Positions 5,708 through 51,934 of a DNA stretch of 64,000 nt are shown here, piece after piece (position 1 is the first letter of the stretch; each line of letters opens with the position of its first letter). The notes under the pieces were generated by a model. That model had not been told where the DNA came from, searched no databases, and saw nothing but the letters and a program-made list of their open reading frames with translations. Made by a program: the position numbers and the translations under genes. Origin of the DNA: a candidate division FCPU426 bacterium (lineage in GTDB: Bacteria; Oederibacteriota; Muellerivitia; Muellerivitales; Muellerivitaceae); assembly GCA_963796105.1 (NCBI GenBank), contig CAWCKJ010000008.1, forward strand, positions 1-64,000. The letters are read 5' to 3'.

Positions 5708-7912
5708 ATGGAATCCACCATCTCTCTCCGGCAGGCCGCCTCTCTTCCCGAAAAGCACCCTTCTTTTTCCCCACCCGGTTTTCGGGAATGGGCGGGCTTC
5801 ATCCTCATTCTCCTGGCAGGCGCGGCGCTTCGCTTATGGAATATCGGCCAAAATGGAACAGGAAACTCCTATTACGCCGCGGCTGTCCGAAGCATGATGA
5901 TGAACTGGCACAATTTCTTTTTCGTGTCCTTTGATCCCGTGGGATTCGTGACGGTGGACAAGCCCCCAGTGGCCTTGTGGATCCAGACCGCCTTCGCGAA
6001 GCTGTTGGGTTACAGCGGCTTTACCCTCATCCTGCCGCAAATCCTGGAAGGACTCGGGGCGATCATTTTGGTTTACCATCTGGTGCGCCGTCGTTTCGGT
6101 TCCGGCGCGGCGCTTTTCTCGGCCCTGGTCATGGCCTTTTCCCCCGTGAGCGTGGCGGTGGACCGATACAACAACACCGACGCCTGCCTGGTCCTGGTAT
6201 TGCTCCTTTCGGCCTGGGCCCTCAGCCTCGCGGCTGAAACCGGCAGCAGGAAACTTCTCTACTTGGCCCTCATCCTGGCCGGCGTGGGATTCAACACCAA
6301 AATGATGGCGGCTTTCGTGGTGCTTCCTTCTTTTTACCTGGTTTACCTGCTGGGTTCCCCCATCTCCTGGTTCAAGCGGTTGTGGGTTCTTGCAACAGGC
6401 ACGCTCCTATTATTGGTGGTGGCCTTGTCCTGGCCCCTGGCGGTGGACATGACTCCTCCCGAACAGCGCCCCTTTGTGGGAAGCACCCAGGATAATTCCA
6501 TGATCAGCCTCTCCTTGGGCTGGAACGGATTCCAAAGACTGCTCGCCAGGGGAAGGGGAGGATTTCCCCGGAACCCCAGGGGAGGCCCGGCAGGTAGAAA
6601 TTGGAATAACCCCTCACCCAACCAGGTGGGGTCCCCCGGAAATACCACGACGGCAGCCGCTCCCGCATCCGCGGGTGTCGCTGGCGCGGCGCCGGCTTCC
6701 CAAAATCCGGGCGGCCGCAGGGGCGGGATGATGAATAACGGAACACCGGGACTCCTTAGGCTGGCCGATAAGAATATGGCGGGCCAGATCGCCTGGTTTC
6801 TTCCCCTGGCCCTGCTGGGTTTCTGGGTGGAGTTGCGACGGAACTGGATTCGATTTCCGCTTTCACCCGACCACCAGGCCCTAGTCCTATGGCTGGGCTG
6901 GATTTTCGTTTACGGGGTGGTCTTCAGTTTCATGAAAGGAGCCATGCATCCCTATTACCTGGTTCTCATGGTTCCGGCCATCGCGGCCTTGGCCGGAATC
7001 GGGGCGAAGACCATTTGGGATCAATTTCAGGAAGGCCGGAAATCCTATTTGTTCCTGGGTCTGGTTTTAACCGCGGCCTGGCAGGCTTTCATTGTGACGA
7101 GATACCCGGACTGGGAATTCCAGCTCCTGCCAATAACGCTCTCGGGAATGGGCTTGGCTCTGGCCGGACTTTATTTTTTACCATCGCTTGCCCGTCAAAA
7201 ACCCGCCCTCGGCTCCTATCTGCCTGCTGCTTTTGGGCTTGGACTTTTCACCCTGTTTTTTTGCCCAGTGTTTTGGGCCCTGACTCCGGTGATTGGCTCA
7301 GGGCAATCGGTGGAAGCCAGCCCGGATTTGTTGATCGGGGGCAACCGGGGCGGAATGTTCAGGGGATTCGGCGAGAACCTGAACAACTCCAAACTCTTGG
7401 CCTTCTTGAAGTCACATCATCAAAACGAAGACTATCTCCTGGTTTCCCAAAACAGCCAAATGGTGGCGCCTATCATCATTAAAACCGGGGAGCCGGTGGT
7501 GGCCCTCGGGGGTTTCATGGGAGGGGACCCCATCCTGACAGCCAACCAATTCGCCCAAAAGGTGAAGGATGGACAGTTCCGCTACATGCTCCTAAACACT
7601 CCCCCTGAGAATCGGGGACAGGGAGGGGTATACCCCGGAGGTAACGGACGGGATTTAGGAGGTAACGCCGGCGGTTTTGGAGGAGGTTTCGGGTTTGGCC
7701 GGATGGGCGGCGCGCAGGCAGAGATTGCCAAGTGGGTCCGGGCGAATGGGAAAATCGTGGACCCGGCGCTTTGGAAACCGGCTATTCCCCCGACCGTCCA
7801 AACCCCGGCTCAAGGCCCCAATGGCCAGCAAGGTTTCGCGGGCGGGTTCGGCGGAAGACGGGGCGGATTGGCCAATCTCCAGCTTTATGACCTTCGAGCT
7901 GATAAAGATTAA
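5708..7912 (+). CDS. ArnT/PMT_2-family (GT-C) membrane glycosyltransferase, YkcB-like, with Gly-rich inserts
   Basis: 'NSYYAAAVRSM...NFFF.SFDP.GFVTVDKPP', 'GFNTKM', 'HPYY', 'GGFMGGDP' motifs; many TM segments. Confidence 0.88.
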   Translation: MESTISLRQAASLPEKHPSFSPPGFREWAGFILILLAGAALRLWNIGQNGTGNSYYAAAVRSMMMNWHNFFFVSFDPVGFVTVDKPPVALWIQTAFAKLLGYSGFTLILPQILEGLGAIILVYHLVRRRFGSGAALFSALVMAFSPVSVAVDRYNNTDACLVLVLLLSAWALSLAAETGSRKLLYLALILAGVGFNTKMMAAFVVLPSFYLVYLLGSPISWFKRLWVLATGTLLLLVVALSWPLAVDMTPPEQRPFVGSTQDNSMISLSLGWNGFQRLLARGRGGFPRNPRGGPAGRNWNNPSPNQVGSPGNTTTAAAPASAGVAGAAPASQNPGGRRGGMMNNGTPGLLRLADKNMAGQIAWFLPLALLGFWVELRRNWIRFPLSPDHQALVLWLGWIFVYGVVFSFMKGAMHPYYLVLMVPAIAALAGIGAKTIWDQFQEGRKSYLFLGLVLTAAWQAFIVTRYPDWEFQLLPITLSGMGLALAGLYFLPSLARQKPALGSYLPAAFGLGLFTLFFCPVFWALTPVIGSGQSVEASPDLLIGGNRGGMFRGFGENLNNSKLLAFLKSHHQNEDYLLVSQNSQMVAPIIIKTGEPVVALGGFMGGDPILTANQFAQKVKDGQFRYMLLNTPPENRGQGGVYPGGNGRDLGGNAGGFGGGFGFGRMGGAQAEIAKWVRANGKIVDPALWKPAIPPTVQTPAQGPNGQQGFAGGFGGRRGGLANLQLYDLRADKD

Positions 7913-7925
7913 ATCTTCAACGGGC

Positions 7926-8936: not shown

Positions 8937-8942
8937 AGCGAG

Positions 8943-11464: not shown

Positions 11465-13618
11465 TTATCTTCCCGCGGAATTCTCCAGCATCTGGGCCCT
11501 CTTGAAACATTCCTGGGCGACCTGCTTCTGGCCGGCGCTTTGATAATCCTCTCCGATCTCCCGCACGACCTTCGGGCTCACGGGGTTCATCTCCAATGCC
11601 TTGTTCAACATCTGGAGGGCCTGGGCGTTCATTTTCTGGTCCAGGTAAAGGTCGGCCATCTTCAGGTAGAAAACCGGGATATTCGGGCTCGCCTGGACGG
11701 CTTTACGGTATAGTTCCAGCGACTGGTCCGGATGGCCCTCCCACTGGATCACGGTGGCCAGGTTAACCAGGTTCTGGGGGTTGTAAGGGTCCAGGGCCAG
11801 GGCCTTCCGGAAGGCGTCCTCCCCCTCGGGAAATTTTTTCAGGAAACCATAGCTCACTCCCAGACGGCTGTAAGCCTCCGGCTCCTCAGGATCGCTCGTG
11901 ATGACCTCCCGCATGACCCTCACCGCGGCCTCGTGCATGCCCTTATGCTCGTAGATGGACCAGAGGTTCATCCGCGCGGGCCGGTAGAGGGGATCGGACG
12001 CGGCGGCGGCCTCGAATTCCTCCTGCGCCTGGTTGATGTCACCCTTGTAAAGAAGCACTGAGGCGTACCCATTATGGGTCGTGGTGAAGACGGGGGGAAT
12101 GGTCATGGCTTTCTGGAATTCCCTCAGGGCGTCGTCGATTTTTCCAGTTTCCATCAGCCAACCGCCGAGGTAGGTATGGGCGATCTGGGAGTCATCCGGA
12201 TAAACCTTTGTGACGCTTTCCCATAGGGTTTGGGAATTTTTCCAAAGGGCGATTTGCCTGACCGTCGCGAAACCGTAACCCGAGACCATCAAAAGGTAAA
12301 CCAGCCCCAAGGCCAAGTACCGGTTGGAAATCCGATAGGCGGCGTACCCGGCGACCGGAAGGAAGAGGCCCAGGCAGGGAAGATAGGTATAGCGGTCCGC
12401 CGCGGCCTGATAGCCCACCTGAATGACGCCCACGACGGGGGCTAGGGAGACCAGGTAATAAAACCAGGCCGCGCCCAAATAAGGCGCCTGATGCCTGTAA
12501 CGCCAACAGGCCCAGGAAATAAGGGCCACCAAGGCCAGGGAAAAGAGGTTCTCGAAGAGATAGAGAGACCCTGGCTGTTGGGGAAAGGGATACATGGGGA
12601 GAAGTTCCACCGGTAGCGCCATTTTCCAGATGTAAAAGATGAGGGACCGGAAGGCGTTAAGGATTTTGGAAACCTCGTTCAAGTTCACGGCCGGGGAAAT
12701 GAAATGGGCGTGCGCGAGGAAGGAAAGAACCGCTCCCGCGGCGGACAGGATGAAAAAAAGGATTTTCTCCTTGAGAACCACGGCCCTTTCCCCGGCCCAG
12801 CGCTGAAGAGGCCAATAATCCAAGACCAGTAATACGAAGGGAAGACTCACCGCCATGGGTTTGGACATCAAGGACAAAAGAAACAAACCCAGGCATGCGT
12901 ACAACTGGGAAGTTTTCCTCGCGGGAGATGCGGCGTATTCCAGGTACAGAAACATGGCCGGAAGATAAAAGAAACTATAGAGGACATCTTTTCGCTCGGT
13001 GGCCCAGGCCACCGATTCCACGTGGATGGGATGAAGCCCGAAAAGGATGGCGGTCATGAGGGCCGCGGGAATGGGGGGCACCCGGAATCGAGAGAATCCG
13101 TCAGGCCCCTTGGAGTTCCTTTCCGCCAGGACGAGGATTTTGACGCTGAGAAGAAAAACCCAAACGGTATTTATCGCGTGGAGGAGGATATTAGTCATGT
13201 GAAAAGCCGCAGGGTTTGGGCCGGACATCCTGAAGTTTAGGGCGAAAGTAAGCCAGGTCAGGGGGATCCAGTTACTGGAATGGAAAGTAGTCAGCATCCA
13301 GAGAAGAGAGCCGGAATTGAGGTGTTGGATATGGAGGTTTTCCAGGATCGTGTCCCGGTCATCCCAGTTGACGAATTCGTTATTGAGAACGGGAAGGTAA
13401 AACAACAATACGGCCAAGACGAGAAGGATGGCGTAAATCCAAAGAAACGAGGGGGGCTGTGCGGCGGTGGAAGACGGAGCCTGGTGGCGGGCTATGACGG
13501 GTATTGGATCCGCCGGAGGAACAGGGGAGAACACCCCGTTGGAGGGGACCTCGGGGATTGGTTCCGCGGGAACGGGCGGGTTTTGGGGAATGAAGTCTTT
13601 CCTTTTCTTTTTCGTCAA
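11465..13618 (-). CDS. TMTC-like GT-C glycosyltransferase with C-terminal TPR repeats
   Basis: 'FVNWDD', 'WIPLTWL', 'LHPIHVESVAWATERKDVL', 'SKPMAV', 'AADRYTY', 'W.NS.TLW', then a TPR array. Confidence 0.88.
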   Translation of the reverse strand: MTKKKRKDFIPQNPPVPAEPIPEVPSNGVFSPVPPADPIPVIARHQAPSSTAAQPPSFLWIYAILLVLAVLLFYLPVLNNEFVNWDDRDTILENLHIQHLNSGSLLWMLTTFHSSNWIPLTWLTFALNFRMSGPNPAAFHMTNILLHAINTVWVFLLSVKILVLAERNSKGPDGFSRFRVPPIPAALMTAILFGLHPIHVESVAWATERKDVLYSFFYLPAMFLYLEYAASPARKTSQLYACLGLFLLSLMSKPMAVSLPFVLLVLDYWPLQRWAGERAVVLKEKILFFILSAAGAVLSFLAHAHFISPAVNLNEVSKILNAFRSLIFYIWKMALPVELLPMYPFPQQPGSLYLFENLFSLALVALISWACWRYRHQAPYLGAAWFYYLVSLAPVVGVIQVGYQAAADRYTYLPCLGLFLPVAGYAAYRISNRYLALGLVYLLMVSGYGFATVRQIALWKNSQTLWESVTKVYPDDSQIAHTYLGGWLMETGKIDDALREFQKAMTIPPVFTTTHNGYASVLLYKGDINQAQEEFEAAAASDPLYRPARMNLWSIYEHKGMHEAAVRVMREVITSDPEEPEAYSRLGVSYGFLKKFPEGEDAFRKALALDPYNPQNLVNLATVIQWEGHPDQSLELYRKAVQASPNIPVFYLKMADLYLDQKMNAQALQMLNKALEMNPVSPKVVREIGEDYQSAGQKQVAQECFKRAQMLENSAGR

Positions 13619-13822
13619 ATGCCCCGTCCTTGACCGGAATTCTTATCATATTAATCCAACTCATCCCCAGTGATGAACCCCCAATATGGATATTTGATGA
13701 TTAATCCTTTATTTCAGCTTTATTTGAGGATGGGATCATCCGGGGGTGGTATTCTTTTTCGTAATTCTTTTGAAAGTTTCACGGGGGGATTTTATCTTAG
13801 GGATAAATTTCGAGGCCTAAAG

Positions 13823-14263
13823 ATGGTTTTCGCGCGAATAAAAAAACCAACGGCGTTTTCCTTGTTCCTGGGGCCAATGATCCTGGGTATGGCCCTATTG
13901 GCTTCCTGCGGCAAAAGCGGGGACCAGGGAAGCGGCGGTTCCGGCCCCAAACCCACCCACACGCCTTTTTTCAAGCTGACGCCGGTCACCCAGATGGTTT
14001 TTCCCAATCCCTGGGACAAGATCCAGCCCTTGAATGTCCGCCCGCCGATTTTTCCAGCGCCCACTGACGTCAAGATCCAGCTGATTGATTCCTCTTTCGA
14101 GGAGGTATTGGGTTTCGGAATAGCCAAATTGAATCCCGGATCGGAATTCACCCTGCCTGCGAATATGCCCACTAAACACGGGACCCCCTATCTTCCCGGG
14201 ACCTATTACCTGGTCATCACCACCTCATTCGGGACCTGGGTGGATCAGATCCAGGTCAAATAA
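13823..14263 (+). CDS. Lipoprotein with C-terminal T9SS-CTD/FlgD-Ig-like small beta domain
   Basis: Lipobox LLASC, Gly/Ser linker, 'VFPNP...LPGTYYLVI...IQVK' tail; start moved to MVFAR after GAGG. Confidence 0.6.
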   Translation: MVFARIKKPTAFSLFLGPMILGMALLASCGKSGDQGSGGSGPKPTHTPFFKLTPVTQMVFPNPWDKIQPLNVRPPIFPAPTDVKIQLIDSSFEEVLGFGIAKLNPGSEFTLPANMPTKHGTPYLPGTYYLVITTSFGTWVDQIQVK

Positions 14264-14308: not shown

Positions 14309-16753
14309 ATGGCAGGTCTGAAAAAGTCGAGGCCCAGGGCTCACCGCAAACCGGCGGGTTTGGGTGTTCGTGGAACCCGTAAGCCCCAATGGCCAAGCCC
14401 CCTGGTTCTTTTCTATGGAACCCTTTTCCTTTTGAGCCAATATTTTTTAAGCGGCCTTTTGCCGGACTCCTATAAAGTCCCGATCATGAGTCTTTCCTGG
14501 ATTTTGGCTTTGTTTGCCTTTTTCTTCCGAGGGAAACTCAAGACGCTTTTCATGGGGGAAGATCGAAAGAATTCTTTTTTTCCCTTGGCCTGGAAGCTCA
14601 ACCATGCGGTTCAAGAAAAGGGTCCCATTCCCATATGGGACCGGGCAGCCCTAATAGCCGCGGCGGGGTTCCTTCTTTATATTTCCGTCTTGTTGCGGCA
14701 CCCTCTCACCCATCCTCAGGAACTCATTGGAGTACAGGATATCGACTTCAACTTTCCCTTCCGGTATTTCTGGGTTCAGAGTTTAAAAAGCGGCGACCCG
14801 GCATTTTGGGAGCCCTACGCCGCTCTTGGAAACCCGTTTCCCGAAACATTGAACGTCGGCGCATTCTCCCCCTTCAATCTCATTTACCTCATTCTGCCAG
14901 TGGCCTATGGCATGACCTGGTTAAGTTTCATCCATTTTTTCATCGCGGCATTCGGAACCTACCTGTTCATCAAGGCTCTTGGCGGGGGAAGCTGGGGATC
15001 CTTTCTCGGGGGAATGAGCTTCGCATTCTCCAGCTATTTCCTCTCCCATACGGAAGCCGGGGGGATCAACATGGTCTGGGCCAGCGCTTGGTTTCCCTTA
15101 GCCCTATATTTCCTGAAGCGCTGCACGGAGAATTTTAAAATAACAAACCTGGCAGCCGCCGGGACCATCATGGGTCTGCAAGTTCTAGAAGGGCATCCCC
15201 AGATCACCTTTTATTCCTACATGATCGCGGCGTTCTTCTTTCTGGCCTATTGGATCGGGAAGAAGATCAGTTTCCGGCAATTCCTCCTGGGAGGAGCCGG
15301 TACGGTTTTGTTGTCCTTGGTTCTTTCGGCCGCCCAATGGCTGCCGTCCTTTCTATTCATCAGCCGCAGTAACCGGTGGGATTGGGGCTACTCGAAAATC
15401 ATGACGGATTTCACGAACCCACGGAACCTGACCTATTTCATCAAACCCTTTTACCTGGGGTCCCCCTTGATGGCGAGTTATTTTCCCGAGAACAATGGGG
15501 GATACCATGAGATGGCCACCTATATCGGATTGATTCCCCTGTTCCTGGCCCTGGCCGGTTTGGTTTGGGCGGGGCGAAGACCCCTCATCAGGTGGTTTTG
15601 GGTCCTGGCGGTTTTATTCACCTTGCTGGCGATGGGGGACTCGACCGTCCTTTCCCACTGGATTTACAATTTTTTTTACGCGGTTCTTCCGGGATTCGGA
15701 CGCAGCCGAAGCGTGGGGCGGATCATGCTATTAACCCTTTTTTGCCTGTCCTGCGCCGCGGGATTGTCCCTGGAGGAATTCAGCGGATCCTGGCGGCGGT
15801 GGACCGGTGGAATCTTGAAGCGGTCGAACGGCCCCAAGCGGATGCTGGCCTTGCTTTTGCCTGCCGTCCTGACCGCGGGCGCCGTGCTTGACCTTTGGCT
15901 CTACGATAAGGACTTCATTCGAGGCATGAAGCAGGATGTTTTCTTTTCGGGCGCCCCCAAATGTCCCGGGGACGTCACTTCCGAGGCGCTTCGGGACAAG
16001 GAACTGCCCCGGATACAGGGAGACAAGTACTTCGAGTGGGAAATGATACCCCGTGTTTCCCAGCCCTTGAGCCGGTTCGCGGACACGGTATTGATCCGCG
16101 AGACTGCGGATTACCTGACGGCGCTCCAGTCGAATTGGGATTCCCCCCTGTCGGACTTGATCGATCTCAAATACCTCTTCGACAAGGATTTGGCGAACCA
16201 CCCGACGAACCGTTGGAAACCCTACCGTGAGGAAACAGTCGTGAACCTCCAGGCGGCTCCCAGGGCCTTCGTGGCGGGAGGTTATGAATGGGTCCCCTCC
16301 GCCCCGGACGCGATCGGGAGAATCTCAAAAAACACATTCGACCTCAGGGAGCAGGTCCTATTGGAAAAGGAGCCGGAGGAGAAGCTGTCTTGGGAGAAGG
16401 GGCGGGCCGGGGAGGCCGAAATCACAAGGTATGGAAACGGTTCCCTGGAATTGTCCTGTAAAAACACGAGGCCTGGATTTCTTTTCCTCTCCGACTCCTA
16501 CTACCCTGGTTGGAGGGCTTGGGTGGACGGTGTAGAGAAGCCCATCCTGCGCGCCGACGGAGCGTTCCGGGCAGTGGTCCTGGACAAGGCCGGCGAACAC
16601 CGCGTGAGGATGGAATACCATCCCACCCTTGCGTATTTTTCCCTAGGATTCACCCTTATTGGGTGGGTTTTGTTAATCGGATGGGCGGCGTTTAGAGTCT
16701 CAAATAGATCAACAAACCCGCCAGGGCGGCGGCCAGGACAATCCAGGCTGTGA
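14309..16753 (+). CDS. YfhO-family membrane protein (putative GT-C glycosyltransferase)
   Basis: 'FWEPY..LG.PF', 'GHPQ', 'YIGLIP', C-terminal 'LSDSYYPGWRAWVDG...ILRADGAFRAV...GEHRVRMEY.P'. Confidence 0.85.
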   Translation: MAGLKKSRPRAHRKPAGLGVRGTRKPQWPSPLVLFYGTLFLLSQYFLSGLLPDSYKVPIMSLSWILALFAFFFRGKLKTLFMGEDRKNSFFPLAWKLNHAVQEKGPIPIWDRAALIAAAGFLLYISVLLRHPLTHPQELIGVQDIDFNFPFRYFWVQSLKSGDPAFWEPYAALGNPFPETLNVGAFSPFNLIYLILPVAYGMTWLSFIHFFIAAFGTYLFIKALGGGSWGSFLGGMSFAFSSYFLSHTEAGGINMVWASAWFPLALYFLKRCTENFKITNLAAAGTIMGLQVLEGHPQITFYSYMIAAFFFLAYWIGKKISFRQFLLGGAGTVLLSLVLSAAQWLPSFLFISRSNRWDWGYSKIMTDFTNPRNLTYFIKPFYLGSPLMASYFPENNGGYHEMATYIGLIPLFLALAGLVWAGRRPLIRWFWVLAVLFTLLAMGDSTVLSHWIYNFFYAVLPGFGRSRSVGRIMLLTLFCLSCAAGLSLEEFSGSWRRWTGGILKRSNGPKRMLALLLPAVLTAGAVLDLWLYDKDFIRGMKQDVFFSGAPKCPGDVTSEALRDKELPRIQGDKYFEWEMIPRVSQPLSRFADTVLIRETADYLTALQSNWDSPLSDLIDLKYLFDKDLANHPTNRWKPYREETVVNLQAAPRAFVAGGYEWVPSAPDAIGRISKNTFDLREQVLLEKEPEEKLSWEKGRAGEAEITRYGNGSLELSCKNTRPGFLFLSDSYYPGWRAWVDGVEKPILRADGAFRAVVLDKAGEHRVRMEYHPTLAYFSLGFTLIGWVLLIGWAAFRVSNRSTNPPGRRPGQSRL

Positions 16754-21414: not shown

Positions 21415-21435
21415 GGCCCGGGAATCTTGGCCGGC

Positions 21436-35420: not shown

Positions 35421-36096
35421 GCAAAGTCCTTTCTTGCTATAGCCTATTGGCATCTCTAGGTTTTGAATTCTCGACGAAAAGTACCAAAGGGTTGCTGCCT
35501 GTTCTACGAATAAAAAATCCTTAATATATTACCCTAAATTTCCTTTCTGAATGGAAGAAATCAGAAAAATAATACATTTTTTTATGTCAAAATATCGTTA
35601 AGAAAGGATGTATAAAAGAATTAATAACAAAATATTAGTAATTGATCTCAAATTAAACATCTCAAACAAATGCTCAAGATCTGGTCATGGTTTAATGATT
35701 TCAAATATGAACTTTAGAACGGGCGGAGTGAGAAATTGAATTTTGAAAAATTAATAAAAGGCCAACATTAATATCAAGGTGCTTGCATTTTAAAAAAAGA
35801 ATGAAAACACATAAAGATTAAACAGGAAACTTTAACTTTCATTTTCTGATCAAGTTTATGCATTAACGCTAAAAGCGAATTAGTTGAATTGTAAAAGTAA
35901 GATTCAATATTGGATATAAATTAAAATTCCAATCATTCTTCTGGTTTACAACTGGGAAGAGACAAATTATGCTATCCAAAAATTAATTTTAACAAATTGA
36001 AATTCGCAACATATTTATCTAAGTATTTTGAGAGAGATCTAAATATCGGAAGGAAATGGCATAAGTTTGTATATTGATTTTAATTAAGGAGAGTTC

Positions 36097-42032: not shown

Positions 42033-42304
42033 GCAAAGTCCTTTCTTGCTATAGCCTATTGGCATCTCTAGGTTTTGAATTCTCGACGAAAAGTACCAAA
42101 GGGTTGCTGCCTGTTCTACGAATAAAAAATCCTTAATATATTACCCTAAATTTCCTTTCTGAATGGAAGAAAACCTTATAATTAGTTCTCATAATATGGT
42201 TTGGTGCATAAATTCGCATTTCCAGGTGGTGGAAATCGCCCTCAAAATAATAGCCATTTTATTCTGCCGATCAAATTATTCATTGCCGTAAAAAAGAGGT
42301 TTTA

Positions 42305-43090
42305 ATGAAAAATCATCTATTTGAATTTAATAAATCTTCAAAAGACCCGCGAAAGGAAACGTGGGATACTCAAAGAGAGACTTTGGATGATTTAGCGAAT
42401 GCTATTCATTATAACCGGTGGATTTACCATTTAATGGAACCCTACTTGGGGCGGAGAATTCTGGAGGTAGGGTGCGGAATTGGGAATATGACGTCCTATT
42501 TTTCAGATCGCGGAGATGTCTTAGCGATGGATTTTCATCAAGATTATTTAGATACAGCTCGAAGCGCATTAAAGTACAAAAAAAATGTACACTTTAAAAA
42601 AATGGATATATCAAGTAGTTTAAATCAAGTTCGATCATTCAAAGCTGATACGGTCGTTTGCGTCAATGTACTTGAACATATCCAAAATGATTTCCAGTTC
42701 CTAAAAGAATGTAATCAGTTATTACTCGATGGAGGAAGATTCCTGCTTTTTGTTCCGGCGCTTCAATTCATTTATGGTTCAATGGATAGAAGTTACGGAC
42801 ATTTTCGGAGGTATTATAAAAACAGGTTAGAAAAACTTTTTGAAAAGGCGGAATTTCATGTTTCCTTTTGCAGATATTTGAATCTCTTGGGGATTTTTGG
42901 TTGGTGGTTCAATGGACAAGTTCTTTGCAGGCCGATTGTTCCTCGGTCTCAAATGCTGGTTTATGACCAAATTGTTCGTTGGACTGGGAAGATTGAGAAT
43001 TGGCTTCCACGCCCCATTGGATTATCTTTATTCTGTGTTGGAGAAAAAAAAGGGGGAGGGCAAAGGGAACAAAAGGCTAAAATTTTTTAA
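42305..43090 (+). CDS. Class I SAM-dependent methyltransferase
   Basis: ILEVGCGIG, CVNVLEHI, FVPA...YGSMD...GHFRRY (type often found beside or fused to GT2). Confidence 0.88.
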   Translation: MKNHLFEFNKSSKDPRKETWDTQRETLDDLANAIHYNRWIYHLMEPYLGRRILEVGCGIGNMTSYFSDRGDVLAMDFHQDYLDTARSALKYKKNVHFKKMDISSSLNQVRSFKADTVVCVNVLEHIQNDFQFLKECNQLLLDGGRFLLFVPALQFIYGSMDRSYGHFRRYYKNRLEKLFEKAEFHVSFCRYLNLLGIFGWWFNGQVLCRPIVPRSQMLVYDQIVRWTGKIENWLPRPIGLSLFCVGEKKGGGQREQKAKIF

Positions 43091-43485: not shown

Positions 43486-44274
43486 ATGCCCAAGAAAATT
43501 GTTCGTAAAAAACGGCCTACCAGGACTCCCAAAAAAACAGTTCAAAGAAAAAGGCCGGCAAGGACTGCGAAAACAACGTTCGATAGTGTTGGAGCGGGTG
43601 TTGCAACTATGCCCCAAATGACAGAACCTAAAGCAGCGATAAATATCTCGAAATTTGTCCGGCGGGGAATAGTTGTGGTCTTTTTTATTTGGTTGGCCCA
43701 GTATTATTTGGAAAAGAAGAAGTTTGATTCCCCCGTTCCAGCTCGTGATGTTGCTGCGGCTTCCGCCGTACCAACTGCAGTGCCCGCCCCAGGTTCCGAA
43801 AAAAAACATGAGGCTGTGCATAAACAAAAACCCTCTGAAATGTCGACCACTTTGGATATTGATGGCTTTAAATCCAAGTCGGGTTATGTTGGTTGGTCAA
43901 AGGATGGAAACGGTAATCCCAATGTTGATAAAAATATAGGTGGTGAACCCTTTAAGGTCGCCGATAAGGTTTTCGAACACGGAATTGGAACATGCGCACC
44001 TTCTGATATCGTGTTCTCGTTAAACGGAAAGATAAAGCATTTCACTTGTAAAGTTGGGGCGGACAATGGGGGCGGCGATATTGACGCTGTGATTTTCTCA
44101 GTTTTAGTCGACGGAAAAAAACTTTTTAAAAGTCATATCATGAATCCCACTATGAAACCTGTTTATGTCGATGTTCCAACAAAGGGAGCCAAAGAGCTTT
44201 CGCTTCAAGTGAAATATGCTCATGGACATACTGAAAAAGGTTGGGCGGATTGGCTTGAACCCAAACTTCAATAA
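43486..44274 (+). CDS. Membrane-anchored NPCBM/NEW2 domain protein
   Basis: Basic N-tail, one TM, 'DKNIGG.P..V....F.HGIGT.APS.I.F.L', 'V.F.V.VDGK', 'ADW..PKL'. Confidence 0.82.
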   Translation: MPKKIVRKKRPTRTPKKTVQRKRPARTAKTTFDSVGAGVATMPQMTEPKAAINISKFVRRGIVVVFFIWLAQYYLEKKKFDSPVPARDVAAASAVPTAVPAPGSEKKHEAVHKQKPSEMSTTLDIDGFKSKSGYVGWSKDGNGNPNVDKNIGGEPFKVADKVFEHGIGTCAPSDIVFSLNGKIKHFTCKVGADNGGGDIDAVIFSVLVDGKKLFKSHIMNPTMKPVYVDVPTKGAKELSLQVKYAHGHTEKGWADWLEPKLQ

Positions 44275-44372: not shown

Positions 44373-45500
44373 ATGCTTTTTTTTCATGCCGACTGCCGGC
44401 ATTTCACCGGAGAAAAACCCTGTTCCCCTCATAAAACCCAAGGAGTCGTTTGCAGGGAATGTCCGCGTTACGATCCGGTGCAAGAACGTATTCTGATCAT
44501 CAAACTAGACGCAGCTGGCGATGTATTAAGATCCACCTCTATTCTTCCCGCGTTTAAAAAAGACAATTCGGGATTATCAATTTGGTGGATTACAGAGAAA
44601 TCCTCTAAACCCCTTTTGGAAAACAATCCTCATATCGACGTAGTTTTGGAAATGGGGCCTGATTTAACGGGTCTTTTGTCCAAAACCGAATTTGGACGAG
44701 TCTTTAATTTTGATATGAGCCGACGGGCCTCAGCGATCCTCCAGGTTTGTCGTTCGCCAATCAAGAAGGGCTTTGGTCTTTCATTAGAAGGTGTTGTGGT
44801 CCCCCTGGAACCTTCCTCGGAAACATGGTTTGAGATGGGTATCTTTGATTCCGCGAAACGAGCCAATCGGAGAACATATCAATCTCATCTTTTTCAAATC
44901 GGTGGATTGAAATATTCAGGCGAAGAACCTCAGTTGGCCCTTTCAGATTCGGAAAAAGAGTGGGCCTTGAAATTCTTTGAAAGAAACAAATTATCCCATT
45001 TTAAAAGAATCATTGGCTTAAATATTGGTTCGGGTGGCCGCTGGCCGCTGAAACGCTGGCGCATGGATGGCTTTTGTTGGCTCGCAAAGCAAATAAAAAA
45101 AATGAACAAACGTTATGGGGTTTTACTTTATGGAGGGCCAGAGGAAAGGGAATTGATGAAGTCCATGAACCGGAAATTAAAAGGGATTTCCATTTCCACG
45201 GGCACTGAAAATTCTCTGAGACAATTCGCCTCATTGGTTAATTTGACGGATGTGTTAGTTTCCGGGGATACTTTGGCCCTTCATGTTGGAATAGCCTTAC
45301 GGAAACGTTTGGTTGCCTATTTTGGCCCCACCTCCGATTCTGAGATTGATCTCTATGGCCGGGGAATCAAAGTGCTCCCGTCCATTCCATGCGAATGTTT
45401 TTACCAGAATAAATGCAATAAAAAAGTCACTTGTATGGATCATTTGAAGGAATCTGAAATGTTATTGGGGGTTAAGAAACAGATTGAAGCTTTGGATTGA
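44373..45500 (+). CDS. GT9 (heptosyltransferase-like) glycosyltransferase with Cys-rich termini
   Basis: 'ILIIKLDAAGDVLRST', 'NPHID', 'KRW', 'SGDTLALH.G.AL', 'FGPT'. Confidence 0.88.
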   Translation: MLFFHADCRHFTGEKPCSPHKTQGVVCRECPRYDPVQERILIIKLDAAGDVLRSTSILPAFKKDNSGLSIWWITEKSSKPLLENNPHIDVVLEMGPDLTGLLSKTEFGRVFNFDMSRRASAILQVCRSPIKKGFGLSLEGVVVPLEPSSETWFEMGIFDSAKRANRRTYQSHLFQIGGLKYSGEEPQLALSDSEKEWALKFFERNKLSHFKRIIGLNIGSGGRWPLKRWRMDGFCWLAKQIKKMNKRYGVLLYGGPEERELMKSMNRKLKGISISTGTENSLRQFASLVNLTDVLVSGDTLALHVGIALRKRLVAYFGPTSDSEIDLYGRGIKVLPSIPCECFYQNKCNKKVTCMDHLKESEMLLGVKKQIEALD

Positions 45501-45591: not shown

Positions 45592-46311
45592 ATGAAAACA
45601 ATCGTCATGGTTCCCACTTACAATGAAAGGCAGAACATTGGCGAGCTTATCCGGCTTCTTCATGAGAGAGCTCAAGAAGCGGAAATACTCGTTGTTGATG
45701 ATTCTTCTCCGGATGGAACTTTTGAAGAGGTGAAAGTGTTGCAAGGAAATGACAATAAACTTCATCTGTTACTACGCGATAGGTCTGTCAAGGGCAGGGG
45801 CTGGGCTGGGAGAGATGGTTTTAGAAAAGCTTTATTTATGGGCGCGGATTTTGTAGTTGAAATGGATTCTGATTTATCCCACCAGCCTAAATTTGTGCCC
45901 GATTTATTGGAGCCGCTCCTTTCCAAGGATGCCGATGTAGTAATCGGAAGCCGTTATATTAAGGGCGGAAGGGACTTGGACCGGCCCTTTTACCGGCAAA
46001 TGACGAGTAACTTCGCCAAGCTTTATTTAAGATGGGTATTGGGTTTAAAGGTAAAGGACCCGACTTCGGGCTTCCGGGCCTTTACAAGTGAAGCCCTTCA
46101 AAAAATAAAAGTCGATACACTTAAAGCGAGAGATCCCTTTACAATTTCCGAGATTTTATTTAGATGTTTTCAGGCTAATTTGAGAATAGTTGAAGTGCCA
46201 ATTGAATTTATCGATCGCTCCAAAGGGATATCGAAGCTCCATGCATGGACCTTGATCCAGTATTTGGCAAGGGCTTTGATTTTAAGATTTAGGCCGCAAT
46301 TTCACGTATAA
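45592..46311 (+). CDS. Polyprenol-monophosphomannose synthase-like GT2 (DPM1/Ppm1 type)
   Basis: 'PTYNERQNI', 'VVDDSSPDGT', 'EMDSDLSHQP', 'IGSRY..GG', 'D.TSGFRAF', 'EVPI.F.DR..G.SK'. Confidence 0.9.
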   Translation: MKTIVMVPTYNERQNIGELIRLLHERAQEAEILVVDDSSPDGTFEEVKVLQGNDNKLHLLLRDRSVKGRGWAGRDGFRKALFMGADFVVEMDSDLSHQPKFVPDLLEPLLSKDADVVIGSRYIKGGRDLDRPFYRQMTSNFAKLYLRWVLGLKVKDPTSGFRAFTSEALQKIKVDTLKARDPFTISEILFRCFQANLRIVEVPIEFIDRSKGISKLHAWTLIQYLARALILRFRPQFHV

Positions 46312-46388: not shown

Positions 46389-49187
46389 ATGACTTTAGGA
46401 AAATCCAAGTTAATAAAACCAATCACTTCAGAGAAAATTCTCGGCTATTTCTGGGCAAATCAAAAAAACATTTTGATAATGCTATTTTCTTTAGTTTTTA
46501 TAACAGGACAAGTTTTAATTCTATTCAAAGGGAATTTGAGTTTGGGCGTGATTGTTTCATTTTTTTCGGTTTTGGGAGGCTTTTGTTCTTATTTTTATGG
46601 GGACAGGTGGCTATTTCCTCTATTGAAAAGCAACAAAACTAAAACGCGGTCATATATGAAACCTGACGCCGTGGCCAAAAATACTTATCTAAAAACAATT
46701 CAGCCAGGGAAAAAAATGAAAGGTATTCCTAATAAGCGGATTCTTATCCTGCGAGGGATCGAGTTGTTAGCAGCATTCATTTTAGGAGGAGTCGGCCAAT
46801 GGTTTTGGATTCAATCCGGGAATTCCTCAACCTTGGGCAAAGGCGCGATTGCTTTTTTCGTGGCGGCACTTCTTTTGATTCACGGCTTAAGTCCTTGGTT
46901 TCGCGAAGGGCTTCAAAGACTATCATTGTCGATCAAGTGGGAATTAATAATCTTGGGGATAATCCTTGCTATCGCTGTTTTCTTCAGGGTTTATCGGATT
47001 GACACAATCCCGTCCGGGTTATTTATCGACCAAGGATTTGAAGGTTATTCTGCCCTCCGCATTCTTCATGAGGGGTGGAGACCTTTTTATGTGGAAGATA
47101 TATTTCATGCCTATGCCTTGGCTTTATATATGCTTGCCGCTTGGTTTAAGGCTTTTGGGTCTTCTGAAATAACTCTTAAACTTTTTTACGCTAGTCTTGC
47201 CATTATCGCTATGCCCCTTATTTATTGGACTTTCCGACAACTTGCGGGTCCGCGAATGGCGCTCCTCACTATTTTTATTTTGGCAGTGATGCGTTGGAAT
47301 GTTAATTTCAGCCGGAATGGATTTCCTACAGTTCAATTAACCCTCTATATTTTCGGGACACTTGCTTTCCTGCTTTATGGATTGAAAAATGGAAAACGCT
47401 GGGCATTTTTGGTCGCTGCATTCTTTTTTGCCGCTGGATTTTATACTTATCAAGCTTTTAAAATATTCCCTCTTTTGCTTCTGATTTATGCTTCGTATGA
47501 ATGGTTCGTAAATAAAAAAATGGTAAAGAAATACCATAAGTTTATCCTTGGCTTTGTTGTTCTAGCTTTAATCCTTACAGCACCATTGCTTTTCCACATG
47601 GTTAAAACCGGAACATGGGGGACCCGAGAAGGGGAGTTAATGTCCCGGAACTTTAAGCAGTTTATAAATGTCCTTTTTCGAACCGCGCTCATGTTCAACC
47701 GGCAAGGGGATCCAAATCCACGCCATAATTTACAAGATTACAGGATGCTGGACGATGTCTCGGGCGTTTTGTTAGTTTTAGGTTTGGCTTATGCCGTAAT
47801 GCGTTGTAAACGGCGTAAATATTTCTACTCCTTAGCCGGTTTTTTTGTCATGAGCCTTCCTTGCATTCTTTCCATCGATCCGGCTCATGCGAATCGCATG
47901 TTTGGCATGACTCCATATATGGCTTTCTTAATTGCCACGCCATTAGGGGCACTTTGGGGAAGGGTGGCGGATTATTTAGGCATGATGAGCGAGAAAATAT
48001 TTCTAAGTTTGCTCTTGGTTCCGCTTGGCTTTATGTCTTACCAAAATTTCGATGTTTATTTCAACAAACAGGCGAATAATTTCGGTTCCTGGGCAGAATA
48101 TTCATGCGTGGAGTCGGCGATTGGCAGGGCCATTTCCCAAAGGGGCCCCTCATATGAGTATTTTATTTCCCCAAATTATTTCAACCATTTCACCATTTCA
48201 TTTTTGGGTTATTCAAGCCTTTCACAGATTCACAGTTTTGATATACCAGGTTCTTTAATTCCCCTCCAAGTTCCAACGAACCGCGGTCTCTTTTTCGCGC
48301 TTCAAGAAGGAAGAACGGGCATTCTGAATTTGCTCCAGTCCATTTATCCTCAAGGGAAAGCCATCTATTCTAAAAATATCTTGGGAAAGGATTATGTTTA
48401 CTTTTTTGAGGTGCCCCCTTCCGTTTGGGCGAAATTCAGGGGTTTGACTGCAGATATTTCGACAGATTCCGGCTCCCTTCAAGTACCTGAATTTCCCAAT
48501 GGGCTGCCAACAGGGCCGTATCATGCGTCTTTTTCAGGTAGCGTTTATTTCAGGCAAATGGGCCGCTATAGGTTTTTAAATCTTGGAGAAGGGAATGCCC
48601 GTTTATATGTAAAAGGAATTCCTGTTTTGGGCTCTATTTACTTGTGTAAGGGATACAGGCCCATTCGGATTGATTGGGATGCCCCCCCTGGAGTTTCAAA
48701 ACCTGATTTCGCTTTGAAACCCGAATCTGGAGTGAATTTACCCTTAAATAGCACCTGTTTAACGACCACCCAAATCTCGGGCGGCCTCAACGCTGAATAT
48801 TTCCCCACTACCAATTGGAAAGGGAAAACAACTTTGAGCGAATGGGAACCCACTCCCAATTTTGCCAATGGAAATGATTTTCCCTTAAGATTAGGTTCAA
48901 TTTTGTGGGCAGGCAAGCTTCGAATTGATAAAACCGGTGTTTATGAATTTTACACCCTCACGGATGGGCAAGCTCGCTTATTGATCGACAGCAATGAAAT
49001 TATTCCAATCGGCATGAGCCGAGCCGGAAAAGTTGAGTTAACCCGCGGAAAGCACCGACTTGAACTTTTTTATAATTCGCCAACCGGGTTCTCGAATTTG
49101 TCGTTAAAGTGGCGAAAACCCGGTATGAAAGATATTGAGGTTATTCCCGAGACGGAATTTGACTCCCCGGGAGTCGCTTCAAAATAA
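46389..49187 (+). CDS. PMT_2/GT39-like (GT-C) glycosyltransferase with C-terminal PA14 domains
   Basis: 'FRVYRID.IP.GLF.DQ', 'W.V.FSR', 'GDPNPRHN....MLD', then PA14-like 'GLNAEYF', 'W.G.L.I..TG.YEF...DG.ARL.ID', 'L.RGKH.L.L.Y', 'L.W..PG...EVIP'. Confidence 0.85.
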   Translation: MTLGKSKLIKPITSEKILGYFWANQKNILIMLFSLVFITGQVLILFKGNLSLGVIVSFFSVLGGFCSYFYGDRWLFPLLKSNKTKTRSYMKPDAVAKNTYLKTIQPGKKMKGIPNKRILILRGIELLAAFILGGVGQWFWIQSGNSSTLGKGAIAFFVAALLLIHGLSPWFREGLQRLSLSIKWELIILGIILAIAVFFRVYRIDTIPSGLFIDQGFEGYSALRILHEGWRPFYVEDIFHAYALALYMLAAWFKAFGSSEITLKLFYASLAIIAMPLIYWTFRQLAGPRMALLTIFILAVMRWNVNFSRNGFPTVQLTLYIFGTLAFLLYGLKNGKRWAFLVAAFFFAAGFYTYQAFKIFPLLLLIYASYEWFVNKKMVKKYHKFILGFVVLALILTAPLLFHMVKTGTWGTREGELMSRNFKQFINVLFRTALMFNRQGDPNPRHNLQDYRMLDDVSGVLLVLGLAYAVMRCKRRKYFYSLAGFFVMSLPCILSIDPAHANRMFGMTPYMAFLIATPLGALWGRVADYLGMMSEKIFLSLLLVPLGFMSYQNFDVYFNKQANNFGSWAEYSCVESAIGRAISQRGPSYEYFISPNYFNHFTISFLGYSSLSQIHSFDIPGSLIPLQVPTNRGLFFALQEGRTGILNLLQSIYPQGKAIYSKNILGKDYVYFFEVPPSVWAKFRGLTADISTDSGSLQVPEFPNGLPTGPYHASFSGSVYFRQMGRYRFLNLGEGNARLYVKGIPVLGSIYLCKGYRPIRIDWDAPPGVSKPDFALKPESGVNLPLNSTCLTTTQISGGLNAEYFPTTNWKGKTTLSEWEPTPNFANGNDFPLRLGSILWAGKLRIDKTGVYEFYTLTDGQARLLIDSNEIIPIGMSRAGKVELTRGKHRLELFYNSPTGFSNLSLKWRKPGMKDIEVIPETEFDSPGVASK

Positions 49188-49459: not shown

Positions 49460-51934
49460 TTGCCTCGGAAAAGGAAAAGCAAGACTACAAAAACTATAAA
49501 CGAGCTTCAAAACCCGCCAGCGGTTGCTTCGAAATCCCATCATGCATTAACCTTGTTGCTCATCCTAGGATGGATTTTAATTTCTCTGTATTTTCTGGGT
49601 CTTCAAAATTTCCATCCTGTTTTCAATGTGCCACCAAACATACCCCCAAGGCTCATGAAACTATTGGGATTCCAGTTTTTCCTCGGTGCGGGTTTTATCG
49701 CATTAATGTTTCTCAATAAACCCGAATCTAATTTAACGGGTGATATCGGAAGAAACCATTCCCGTATGTTGCTTTTAGGGATCATGGCTTTGACGGCATT
49801 TATGAGACTTTATCAAGCTGATTCCATTCCCGGCCATTACTGGGATGACTTTTTCTTGCCGATCGAAGACGGCTGTCAAATTGCCGATTATCATAAATTT
49901 TCTGTTTTCGGAACGTTTCAAGATGGCGAACCCCTTTATGGCTATGTTCTTGGTGCGGTTTTATACCTTTTTCCCAAATGGGATGGCCTACTCATCCAAC
50001 GCTTAGTCGCAACCGGGTTCGATCTTTTCGCTGTTTGGATTTTTTACTTACTCGGAAAAGAATTTGGAAAACGCCGAATCGGTATTTTAATGGCTTCCTT
50101 TGGCGCGATGAACAAACCCATGATCATGATGATTTTTAGCTATATGCGTTTCGTAACCATTCCTGCGTTTACAGCTCTCAGCCTCCTGTTTTCATTGCGC
50201 TTGTTTAAAAAACCAAACTTGTCCCATTTTATTCAATGGGGTGCCACAATCGCCGTGGGTTACTACACCTATACGGCTTACCGGCTCTTAGGACTTTTTA
50301 TTGTATTCGCGGTATTGGCTTGGGTTCTTTTTAGGAAGAAACTTACAACCATAACTATTCATGAAGGCCTTTTAGGTTCTGGATTAGCTGGGATCATTTT
50401 TTTGATTTTCATTTATCAAAATCGAACTTGCTTAAATCCACAATCCGGACTTAAAAACAGCGTGGTCTTTTTAGCGGAAAACGGGAAATTGGTTATTGTC
50501 TTATTGATGGGATGGATATTCTGGGAATACCTAATGAAAGTGCGCAAGGGCATTGGGGATAAAATCCTACTTTACTACACCATAAGTGTTCTTCTCATCA
50601 TGGCTTTGGTTTATCCTATTTTTTCAGGAGGGGAGAGAGTTTCCAGCCGTTTATATTCAATATTAAGTCTTTCCCCGGCCGATTCATCTTTTTTTCAAAT
50701 TGCTCGTATTCTTTTCAACCGCGTCCTTACTACTTTCAATACCTTATTTCATACCGGGCTGGACCGGGAAGATATCAATATATTCGGTGATCCCTATTTT
50801 GGAGTGGCGGACTTAATTTGCGTCTTTCCTGGCTTAATTTATGTTCTTTTTAAACCCTCTTGGAAAAAAACTTTTATTCTTTTAACGGCTTTTGCTGGAC
50901 TAAGTCCGCATATATTTGCTGATCCGGGGGGCAATAGGTTGGTGGGATGCATTGTTCCATTGCTTTTGATCGGAGCCCTGGGTTTTGATCAAATGTTTGA
51001 GGCGACAACCGCCTGCTCTGGGCGTCATTTGGGGTTTGGATTGGGAGTTCTGGCCTGGCTTGGCCTTTTAAGTTTCGGCTCCTATTCCACATTTGAAAAA
51101 GTATATTTTCATTTCAACACTAAAAAGCGCCATGAAGTCATCATGGCGGAGCAACTTAGGAAAGATTGCGAGAACAGCCGCGTATATGGTTATTATGAAG
51201 GCTCTGGTCCGACGAATGTTATGAACGAAAATTTCGTATCTTATTGGTTGTCCTTGGATTCAAATCCGGTTTATTTGGGCTCGGAAGAGAAAACCCCTAA
51301 TATAACTGTTTTGATCCAGAGTGATATTATTCCAAGACTTCCAGGGCTTATTGAAAAAATGAGAACTCAATTTCCGAATGGGAAGTGGGATAAGATTAGT
51401 TTTGATCCTAATAGCCCGCCTGGCAATTTCTGCATAGTCCGATTTTTTATTCCGGGCAGTCAGATATCAGCGGATAATTCTAAATTATTCTATGCCGCAA
51501 GGATTCCAAAGCCAAAATGGACAAGAAGATTTTTTATGGACCGCTACCGCATTGGCCGGGGAGTTGTCCTCGCGGAGGACCGCGTTGAAGACGTGAATGA
51601 GCCATTACCAATAGGAATACAAAAAAGATCTATTCTTTTTTCAAATCCCTCTGTGTCAATTCGTGTGGAGGGCGTTTTTCATGCAACTGAGGATGGCCAA
51701 TACAAATTTTCGACTGAAACAGATAATGCAACCGATCTTTGGCTTAACGATCATTTAATCCTTTATCTCAGGCCATGGGGTAAAACAAAATATTCAAAAA
51801 AGTTATTTCTTGCTAAGGGCGATTATGCCGTCCGTTTGATGACCCATTCCCCTGGTGCTGAGAAAATTCCTAACTTGACTGTTATTTATCCTTCTTCGGA
51901 AGAATCGAAAGATTTTTTCAAAACAGCTTCATGA
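49460..51934 (+). CDS. PMT_2/GT39-like (GT-C) glycosyltransferase with C-terminal PA14-like domain
   Basis: 'MRLYQ.D.IPG..WDD', multi-TM core, 'G.YTY..YR', C-terminal 'EG.F....DGQYKF...DN...LWLND...L.KG.Y.V.L'. Confidence 0.8.
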   Translation: MPRKRKSKTTKTINELQNPPAVASKSHHALTLLLILGWILISLYFLGLQNFHPVFNVPPNIPPRLMKLLGFQFFLGAGFIALMFLNKPESNLTGDIGRNHSRMLLLGIMALTAFMRLYQADSIPGHYWDDFFLPIEDGCQIADYHKFSVFGTFQDGEPLYGYVLGAVLYLFPKWDGLLIQRLVATGFDLFAVWIFYLLGKEFGKRRIGILMASFGAMNKPMIMMIFSYMRFVTIPAFTALSLLFSLRLFKKPNLSHFIQWGATIAVGYYTYTAYRLLGLFIVFAVLAWVLFRKKLTTITIHEGLLGSGLAGIIFLIFIYQNRTCLNPQSGLKNSVVFLAENGKLVIVLLMGWIFWEYLMKVRKGIGDKILLYYTISVLLIMALVYPIFSGGERVSSRLYSILSLSPADSSFFQIARILFNRVLTTFNTLFHTGLDREDINIFGDPYFGVADLICVFPGLIYVLFKPSWKKTFILLTAFAGLSPHIFADPGGNRLVGCIVPLLLIGALGFDQMFEATTACSGRHLGFGLGVLAWLGLLSFGSYSTFEKVYFHFNTKKRHEVIMAEQLRKDCENSRVYGYYEGSGPTNVMNENFVSYWLSLDSNPVYLGSEEKTPNITVLIQSDIIPRLPGLIEKMRTQFPNGKWDKISFDPNSPPGNFCIVRFFIPGSQISADNSKLFYAARIPKPKWTRRFFMDRYRIGRGVVLAEDRVEDVNEPLPIGIQKRSILFSNPSVSIRVEGVFHATEDGQYKFSTETDNATDLWLNDHLILYLRPWGKTKYSKKLFLAKGDYAVRLMTHSPGAEKIPNLTVIYPSSEESKDFFKTAS

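Follow-up and report, generated by a model that had tools for sequence, protein, structure and literature searches.

Introduction

In Caldicellulosiruptor bescii a GT39-class gene is needed for the glycosylation of enzymes with Thr/Pro linkers (PMC6151902), and in streptococci GT2 and YfhO-family enzymes together glycosylate Ser/Thr-rich disordered regions (PMC12041528). The human enzymes TMEM260 and TMTC act on the β-strands of folded IPT and cadherin Ig-like domains, respectively, while mucin-like regions are served by POMT alone (PMC11292533). Human TMEM260 is inactive when mutated to D52A and distant bacterial homologues of it have already been mentioned (PMC10214176), as have prokaryotic homologues of the TMTCs, for which the motifs compared are a first-loop DD, HPxH and an Arg before transmembrane helix 10 (TM10) (PMC7801869). 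In Bacteroidota, type IX secretion cargo is glycosylated in the periplasm (PMC11611037), and Bacillus subtilis YkcB is described as a putative cell-surface glycosyltransferase.

Here we analyse a 64-kb stretch of DNA (the window) from a candidate division FCPU426 bacterium (contig CAWCKJ010000008.1, positions 1 to 64,000), which holds seven genes for GT-C-type membrane glycosyltransferases (GT-Cs), a GT2 gene and the gene of a protein with a giant Thr/Pro-rich stalk; genes are named by their lower window coordinate. A preliminary description of this DNA had read ~46 kb of it as a candidate multi-enzyme system for surface O-glycosylation. We find that the window, far from being one dedicated system, samples a genome- and lineage-wide GT-C set, of which it is a dense patch where genes swap in and out. 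From sequence comparisons and analogy to the enzymes above, we lean, by a modest measure, towards the view that a subset of the GT-Cs carries out periplasmic O-glycosylation of secreted Thr/Pro stalk proteins.

Results

A PMT_2 class and Thr/Pro stalks across the phylum

The class of gene 46389 emerged when the PMT_2 matches (56 in total) of five genomes, two of them stalk-rich and three stalk-free, were classified. We built a profile of this class from 10 sequences, all from stalk-bearing genomes, and searched 41 genomes of the phylum with it (presence taken as E 1e-40 or better), finding the class in 36/41 and absent exactly from the families f4 and f5; it is present in 32/32 genomes with at least 20 matches to the Thr/Pro pattern and in 0/5 with none. 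With 5,005 representatives at 1e-30 this is a large class, and when 20 of its distant relatives were looked up an organism name was obtained for 5, all 5 of them Chloroflexota. The Chloroflexota are probably rich in Thr/Pro proteins. By Pfam, 46389 itself combines PMT_2 with PA14; its first-loop (loop-1) motif is DQ, and the loop-1 Asp is invariant in 10/10 members of the class. The predicted fold of its core matches AglB (Z 29.2), STT3 (27.8), ArnT (26.1) and Pmt4 (24.0), and since it is as close to ArnT as to the protein-acting oligosaccharyltransferase and PMT enzymes, structure does not decide the acceptor.

PF13231 (PMT_2) scores over its cut-off for 5708 (E 6.6e-32, together with YkcB_C), 36097 and 46389; for 49460 the sole Pfam match is PA14, and the protein groups with PMT_2-positive paralogues in clustering. 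The loop-1 motif reads DD in 49460 and DG in 36097. No true PMT/POMT (GT39) was found: PMT_4TMC (PF16192) is present in 0/5 genomes including the source genome (control positive in Corynebacterium) and the best score against the NCBIfam Pmt equivalog, 17.3 bits for 5708, lies far under the cut-off of 800, with the DE motif not found. As judged from these profiles, ‘PMT-like’ is true only at the level of the PMT_2 superfamily. Gene 14309 matches PF09586 (YfhO) with 31.4 bits against a cut-off of 28.5, covering only positions 756-832 of the 835 in the model, a C-terminal stretch of 77.

TMEM260-, TMTC- and YfhO-like genes are not distributed as stalks are

Across the 41 genomes we count 3-63 PMT_2, 0-16 TMEM260, 0-17 TMTC-like and 0-13 YfhO matches per genome, along with 10 to at least 125 C-terminal secretion-like tails and 0-4,498 matches to the Thr/Pro pattern, and the GT-C/stalk expansion is lineage-wide, not confined to the source genome (G000). 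The co-occurrence of GT-Cs and mucin-like proteins that had been put forward as a test in relatives holds in part: large GT-C sets accompany Thr/Pro proteins across the family, but the occurrence of TMEM260-, TMTC- and YfhO-like genes does not follow that of stalks. The five genomes of f4 and f5 have zero Thr/Pro pattern matches, yet contain 3-16 TMEM260 and 1-8 YfhO matches, so that TMEM260-like genes are present in 5/5 stalk-free genomes, while G030 and G036, with 218 and 316 pattern matches, lack TMTC-like and YfhO matches and have a single weak one for TMEM260. YfhO, not found in these two genomes, was rejected as a universal stalk enzyme. TMTC-like genes are missing from 12/32 stalk-rich genomes, and in other phyla 43/50 TMTC-bearing genomes (picked from the genomes behind 80 loci) have no Thr/Pro pattern match. 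Copy number set against stalks per Mb gave rho -0.11 for TMEM260 and 0.25 for TMTC, neither significant; PMT_2 and YfhO gave rho 0.35 each, at a nominal p of 0.02-0.03 among kin that are not independent, and the PMT_2 correlation is lost within family f1 and at family level. The idea that the TMEM260 and TMTC homologues are the mucin enzymes is not supported, given their abundance in stalk-free relatives and the stalk-rich genomes that lack TMTC-like genes. Their distribution apart from stalks agrees with human enzymes that serve folded β-strands (PMC11292533).

Elsewhere in the genome from the window, a YfhO-TMEM260 pair (G000:C11:15956-20499) lies amid six giant stalk genes (G000:C11:1-35216). 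The pair recurs in 8 genomes belonging to 6 genera; a stalk gene lies within ~2 kb in 7/8 (in the eighth the contig ends; kin are not independent) and a TMTC-like gene within ~2 kb in three. For comparison, a stalk gene is near 6/21 other TMEM260 loci. Going by gene order, this pair would be more promising than the window as a locus for cargo glycosylation.

A TMEM260 homologue and a TMTC-like enzyme

Gene 31015 matches PF11028 (TMEM260-like) at its N-terminus with 61.2 bits against a cut-off of 24.2 (E 1.4e-16) and also carries TPR. It aligns to human TMEM260 (PDB 9rql) over residues 14-459 (E 6.1e-20) with Asp26 on the catalytic Asp52, and this Asp is invariant in 11/11 TMEM260 paralogues of G000. 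By alignment, then, 31015 is a real TMEM260 homologue, with mannose transfer to IPT β-strands as a possible function.

For 11465 we observe the TMTC motifs in the form of a loop-1 D86-D87 (14/14 paralogues), H196-P197-x-H199 and R409 before TM10 (14/14). Its predicted model has a GT-C fold (pLDDT 80.6) whose core matches AglB, STT3, ArnT and Pmt4 with Z 19.1-16.3, and a eukaryotic DUF1736 cluster stands among its Atlas neighbours at rank 23 (0.91), which is a lead only. Pfam, however, finds TPR alone, and because 0/14 TMTC-like paralogues match PF08409 (DUF1736) at E up to 1, we classify 11465 on its sequence as a TMTC-like GT-C and not a TMTC proper. The SHKSYRP motif is absent from 11465, where the loop reads NWIPLTW; a PDB sequence search with its membrane domain gave TPR matches only; no TMTC or TMEM260 entry appears among the fold matches listed; and PF08409 is not among the domains listed for the 40 long TMTC-like matches (929-2650 aa). 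A genome scan with PF08409 was blank, as was its control. Of the three eukaryotic O-mannosyltransferase families proposed to have homologues here, TMEM260 stands, catalytic Asp included, TMTC stands in motifs and fold without DUF1736, and PMT is not supported beyond the PMT_2 superfamily. The TMTC-like family is widespread in bacteria, at 80 loci (L001-L080) in many phyla, with at least 2 TMTC-like matches in 21/80 and a DPM-like GT2 nearby in 18/80; a stalk ORF (open reading frame) was found in 0/80 of these loci.

Genome-wide census, stalk cargo and export

The source genome (4.98 Mb, 96.8% complete) contains 94 GT-C-like ORFs by iterated searches, 14 of them TMTC-like and a few of them fragments, together making up 204,528 nt or 4.1% of the genome; profile matches number 50 for PMT_2, 11 for TMEM260 and 10 for YfhO. 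It further holds 164 Thr/Pro-rich ORFs (533,970 nt, 10.7% of the genome), 49 with at least 500 such residues. The stalk content of the genome comes to ~69,000 residues, with stalks of up to ~1,650 aa. C-terminal tails gave 123 matches, 2 of which were dropped as low-complexity artefacts, leaving ~121.

The stalk ends at most 130 residues from the C-terminus in 64/97 stalk-bearing tail proteins, and 17/21 sampled tails of G000 match TIGR04183 (type A tail). The PorV family has 19 matches, 16 over the cut-off, and 10/18 PorV loci (two adjacent matches counted as one) stand directly after a tail gene, for example C2:37885-45042 followed by C2:36932-37747, which suggests cargo-specific barrels. 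A SprA-like 2,017-aa ORF (G000:C3:212289-218342), a few kb from lpxD/lpxC and with similar ORFs in G002 and G036, shows four colinear TIGR04189 matches that stay below the cut-off (E 6.6e-34 for the best), while matches in two Bacteroidota genomes lie far above it; the SprA_N (PF14349) scan was blank, as was its control. LpxC and LpxD are present, as in a lipid-A-making bacterium. Among 18 proteins scanned (17 cargo proteins and the SprA-like ORF) the head domains include GH9, GH8, subtilase, IgGFc-binding, NHL propeller and Ig-like. With such tails and barrels, the stalk proteins probably leave the cell through a divergent type IX secretion system.

Two further groups of giant proteins were noted. 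A 2,176-aa membrane protein (G000:C3:70018-76548; ~39 predicted helices, PMT_2 + DUF2298; relatives in G025 and G036) is likely a multi-GT-C fusion, and Gly-rich giants of 1,592-4,660 aa (C4:380901-394883, C2:414809-422281, C9:95904-101006, C4:373712-378490) have barrel-like C-termini and by eye are autotransporter-like.

The stalk gene of the window

The window stalk comprises 1,448 aa (about 25907-30250) with 49% Thr and 21% Pro and a Thr-to-Thr spacing of 2 in 630/710 cases, followed C-terminally by a 95-residue tail (30245-30529) that matches only PorU/PorZ C-termini and FlgD, weakly. N-glycosylation of the stalk was considered and rejected, since its 1,448 aa contain no more than 4 sequons. 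The ORF ends 483 bp upstream of the TMEM260 gene 31015. As sequenced, the 1,773-aa ORF has no in-frame signal peptide; its hydrophobic N-terminus and first ~106 residues lie in ORF 24829-25182, and judged against two intact paralogues with the signal in frame there is one extra base near 25147, a frameshift that may be a sequencing error or mark a pseudogene. The secreted protein with ~1450 aa of Thr/Pro repeats reported directly upstream of the DUF2723 gene is accordingly confirmed in its stalk and its position, with the signal peptide out of frame. In a same-genus genome used for synteny (G001) the stalk gene at this position is unbroken and encodes 2,173 aa; its best G000 match is another paralogue. 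Other stalk ORFs of G000 are out of frame or without a tail (C4:631966-635934, C6:522-3344, C4:623501-625372), so the window is not the only place where stalk genes are broken or the assembly is in error.

The window as a patch of the genome-wide set

All seven multi-pass membrane ORFs taken as GT-C-type genes in the preliminary description were recovered at the starts given there (Table 1). Seven GT-Cs compare with 1.2 expected per 64 kb by random placement (Poisson p 2.6e-4, ~0.02 over the 77 tiles of 64 kb into which we split the genome), and the window ranks second for GT-C count among these tiles, with one other tile at 8 and three at 5. Four of the seven (5708, 14309, 36097 and 49460) are absent from the otherwise syntenic region of G001, which carries an extra 46389-type gene there. 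The soluble 239-aa product of 45592 matches PF00535 (6.8e-24) and, in NCBIfam, AglJ best (83.5 against a cut-off of 325) followed by PgfS and PpgS, all under cut-off; we predict a polyprenyl-phosphate sugar synthase from this family membership. With it, G000 has 9 DPM-like GT2s, the other 8 being more distant paralogues.

Table 1. Features of the window with their coordinates
Feature	Position	Strand	Basis and remarks
YkcB-like GT-C (PMT_2 + YkcB_C)	5708..7912	+	Pfam, clustering; 1 of 3 in genome; absent from G001 syntenic region
TMTC-like GT-C + TPR	11465..13618	-	Motifs WDD, HPxHVE, DRY; no DUF1736 match; 1 of 14
Small protein with the same secretion-tail domain at its end, without Thr/Pro stalk	13670..14263	+	
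YfhO-like GT-C	14309..16753	+	1 of 13-14; absent from G001 syntenic region
Stalk-protein gene, 5' part: hydrophobic signal-like N-terminus, start of Cys-rich head domain	24829..25182	+	
Stalk-protein gene, 3' part: head domain, Thr/Pro stalk, FlgD-Ig / type IX secretion-like C-terminal tail	25211..30532	+	
TMEM260 (DUF2723, GT117-like) homologue + TPR	31015..33066	+	Asp26 aligns with human Asp52; 1 of 11
PMT_2-superfamily GT-C, distant 46389-class member	36097..38571	+	Between duplicated MFS/spermidine-synthase genes
SAM-dependent methyltransferase	42305..43090	+	Retained in G001 syntenic region
NPCBM carbohydrate-binding-domain protein	43486..44274	+	
GT9 (heptosyltransferase family) gene	44373..45500	+	Upstream of GT2 orthologue in 23/28 genomes
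Soluble GT2, predicted polyprenyl-phosphate sugar synthase	45592..46311	+	Single-copy orthologue in 28/31 family genomes
PMT_2 + PA14 GT-C, best stalk-glycosylation candidate	46389..49187	+	Class in 36/41 phylum genomes
GT-C + PA14 (WDD motif)	49460..51934	+	Member of a cluster of 6; absent from G001 syntenic region

Several features of the surrounding sequence were recorded. A low-GC block (GC 0.42) spans 31000-52000, with lower values in only 19/940 genome windows. Within it a fused MFS/spermidine-synthase gene occurs in two copies (33225-35560 and 39837-42172), absent from the G001 locus. Their 97 differences (95.8% identity over 2,336 bp) all fall in the 3' third of the gene, and between the two copies lie GT-C 36097 and an IS30-like transposase present once in the genome (38669-39649). 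A tRNA-Arg followed by a DDE transposase (2454-4619) marks the left edge of the variable region, near which synteny with G001 is lost shortly past an FGE-domain gene. The ORF at 18631-21414, which overlaps an RNase II gene, encodes a protein of 927 aa that carries a signal and is 79% identical in G001; it lacks Pfam matches and gives only a weak TolB-propeller match. Immediately 5' of the stalk gene is a LytS/LytTR two-component pair (22676-24576), kept in G001 and followed by an AT-rich intergenic region.

Discussion

Taken together these comparisons suggest a scheme in which GT2 45592, or one of its 8 distant paralogues, would load sugar onto undecaprenyl phosphate, as expected from its family; the loaded carrier would be flipped outward, and GT-Cs would pass the sugar to periplasmic acceptors via their first-loop Asp. 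For the stalks, distribution and precedent make the 46389 class the best candidate enzymes, joined in f1 perhaps by the YfhO-TMEM260 pair. TMEM260- and TMTC-like enzymes would more likely act on folded β-sandwich domains, as the human ones do, and YkcB-like and GT9-linked enzymes would more likely decorate lipopolysaccharide (LPS) or other glycans. Glycosylation may stiffen the stalks and shield them from proteases, and stalks of this kind would hold the head domains (GH9, GH8, subtilase, propellers, Ig-like) off the cell.

Several observations weigh against assigning stalks to a subset of the GT-Cs. The five stalk-free genomes fall in two families, f4 and f5, that possibly form one clade in a quick RpoB tree (G006 and G033 were left out for a split or partial gene), so that the match between 46389 class and stalks may represent only 1-2 evolutionary events. 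The profile, as noted, derives solely from stalk-bearing genomes, GT-C clusters 13 and 15 split the same way in the five classified genomes, and the class is also found in 4 genomes with fewer than 20 pattern matches, of which G026 is not above its control. Copy number of the class does not track stalks (rho 0.20, p 0.22). A Verrucomicrobia genome (G073, locus L038), which represents a second stalk lineage, lacks the 46389 class at 242 Thr/Pro pattern matches; near metagenome loci of 46389 relatives a stalk gene was found in 0/8. In favour of the assignment, 6/94 GT-Cs of G000 have a stalk of at least 500 aa no more than 1 kb away, where random placement gives 1.3; against it, six of nine tests of GT-C-to-stalk proximity were weak (p 0.03-0.13). 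The GT2 orthologue follows GT9 in 23/28 genomes and precedes a 46389-type gene in 7/28, counted in 1.5-kb flanks of which some are cut, and GT-C folds cannot tell protein from lipid or glycan acceptors.

A wider form of the stalk-glycosylation proposal is a eukaryote-like, domain-specialised periplasmic network, in which the 46389 class, as a new PA14-bearing GT-C class shared with Chloroflexota, would coat stalks of up to 1,600 residues, TMEM260- and TMTC-like enzymes would act on Ig-like domains of the same cargo, and divergent type IX export would build a glycocalyx; we offer it as tentative, possible but on the doubtful side. The main rival is decoration of LPS or other glycans: most GT-Cs would be three-component modifiers of LPS or surface polysaccharide (GtrABV/ArnT-like) diversified against phage or predators, and the stalks would be bare or glycosylated by unrelated enzymes. 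We consider it unlikely. In its favour, the GT2 orthologue follows a GT9 gene in most genomes. No stalk gene adjoins the 31015 orthologues of G002, G018 and G019, which lie beside methyltransferase and propeller genes (in G019 also near genes of GDP-mannose-dehydratase-like and GT2 type), GT-C genes are exchanged between close relatives and sit in the low-GC block, stalk-free f5 has 22-47 PMT_2 matches, ArnT is among the top fold matches, and polysaccharide-modifying GT-Cs carry carbohydrate-binding domains (PMC11127046). However, LPS decoration leaves unexplained the TPR-bearing TMEM260 homologues with their catalytic Asp, the YfhO-TMEM260 pair among cargo genes, and why ~69,000 residues of Thr/Pro stalk open to proteases should stay bare.

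We hold it improbable that one or two enzymes initiate and PA14- or TPR-bearing GT-Cs extend the O-glycans by single lipid-linked sugars, in the manner of mycobacterial arabinan enzymes. Relatives of 46389 are found in tandem with GT-Cs of other classes (arrays of 5 GT-Cs in L291 and of 6 in L294), and G025, at 241 stalk matches, has no more than 7 PMT_2, 2 TMEM260 and 3 YfhO matches, so that few enzymes may suffice for initiation; against this, only 9 DPM-like GT2s limit the variety of donors, and large GT-C sets exist without stalks too. Weakest, and very improbable, is the original proposal that the 46-kb block is a dedicated system whose PMT, TMTC and TMEM260 homologues O-mannosylate the adjoining giant mucin, which is largely refuted as a locus, since despite real TMEM260 and TMTC-like homologies and stalk and TMEM260 genes that adjoin both here and in G001, the window holds only 7/94 GT-Cs and 1/49 large stalks, four of its GT-Cs are missing at the G001 locus where the stalk gene matches another paralogue best, no stalk gene adjoins the 31015 orthologues of four genomes besides G001 (in one of them the contig stops at the orthologue), PMT_4TMC is missing in all five genomes searched, TMEM260- and TMTC-like genes abound where stalks are lacking, and the local stalk gene is frameshifted.

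Periplasmic glycosylation of the stalks by some of the GT-Cs, the reading we favour, would concern a considerable share of the genome: GT-C and Thr/Pro-rich ORFs take up ~15% of it, tied to type IX-like export outside Bacteroidota. The 46389 class with GT2 45592, and the YfhO-TMEM260 pair, are candidates for glycosylating synthetic mucin-like repeats in bacteria. The genome offers 11 natural bacterial TMEM260 paralogues with the catalytic Asp; the human gene causes SHDRA syndrome. If the domain-specialised network were true, the bacterial TMEM260 and TMTC paralogues would be accessible models of how the human enzymes arose. The tempting link from TMEM260 and TMTC homologues to mucins is corrected here.

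Three-component glycan modification systems usually have one to few GT-Cs per genome, and we know of no TPR- or TMEM260-type members among them. With such systems (GtrABV, ArnT, GT136) our loci share the GT2 + GT-C logic, carbohydrate-binding domains and strain-variable blocks (PMC11127046). We found no account of such a GT-C/stalk expansion in the literature open without subscription, and the extracts of the Goldbacteria paper contain no mention of FlgD or linker (PMC7031533); every individual step has a precedent, and the scale and combination appear undescribed. Like streptococcal GtrB/PgtC2 and PgfS/PgfM1, the system would pair a GT2 donor synthase with a YfhO-family GT-C acting extracytoplasmically (PMC12041528). 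Gene 31015 resembles human TMEM260 (GT117) in its membrane-domain alignment, catalytic Asp and C-terminal TPR (PMC10214176), but here there are 11 paralogues in one bacterium, and 11465 resembles human TMTC1-4 (GT105) in its first-loop DD, HPxH, Arg before TM10, GT-C fold and TPR tail (PMC7801869), but lacks a DUF1736 match and SHKSYRP and belongs to a separate, widespread bacterial family. As in Bacteroidota type IX secretion there are TIGR04183-type tails, PorV-family barrels, a SprA-like barrel and >100 cargo proteins (PMC11611037); unlike it, the phylum is another one, many PorV copies are paired with cargo genes, SprA scores under its cut-off and giant Thr/Pro stalks stand beside the tail. 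Similar to C. bescii Cbes_1864 and CelA, we see a lipid-donor-type membrane transferase with a sugar-binding-like domain, alternating Thr/Pro linkers and GH9 cargo, a likeness of arrangement; however, where C. bescii has one enzyme and short linkers, this bacterium has 94 GT-C-like ORFs, stalks of up to ~1,650 aa, an outer membrane and a type IX-like route (PMC6151902).

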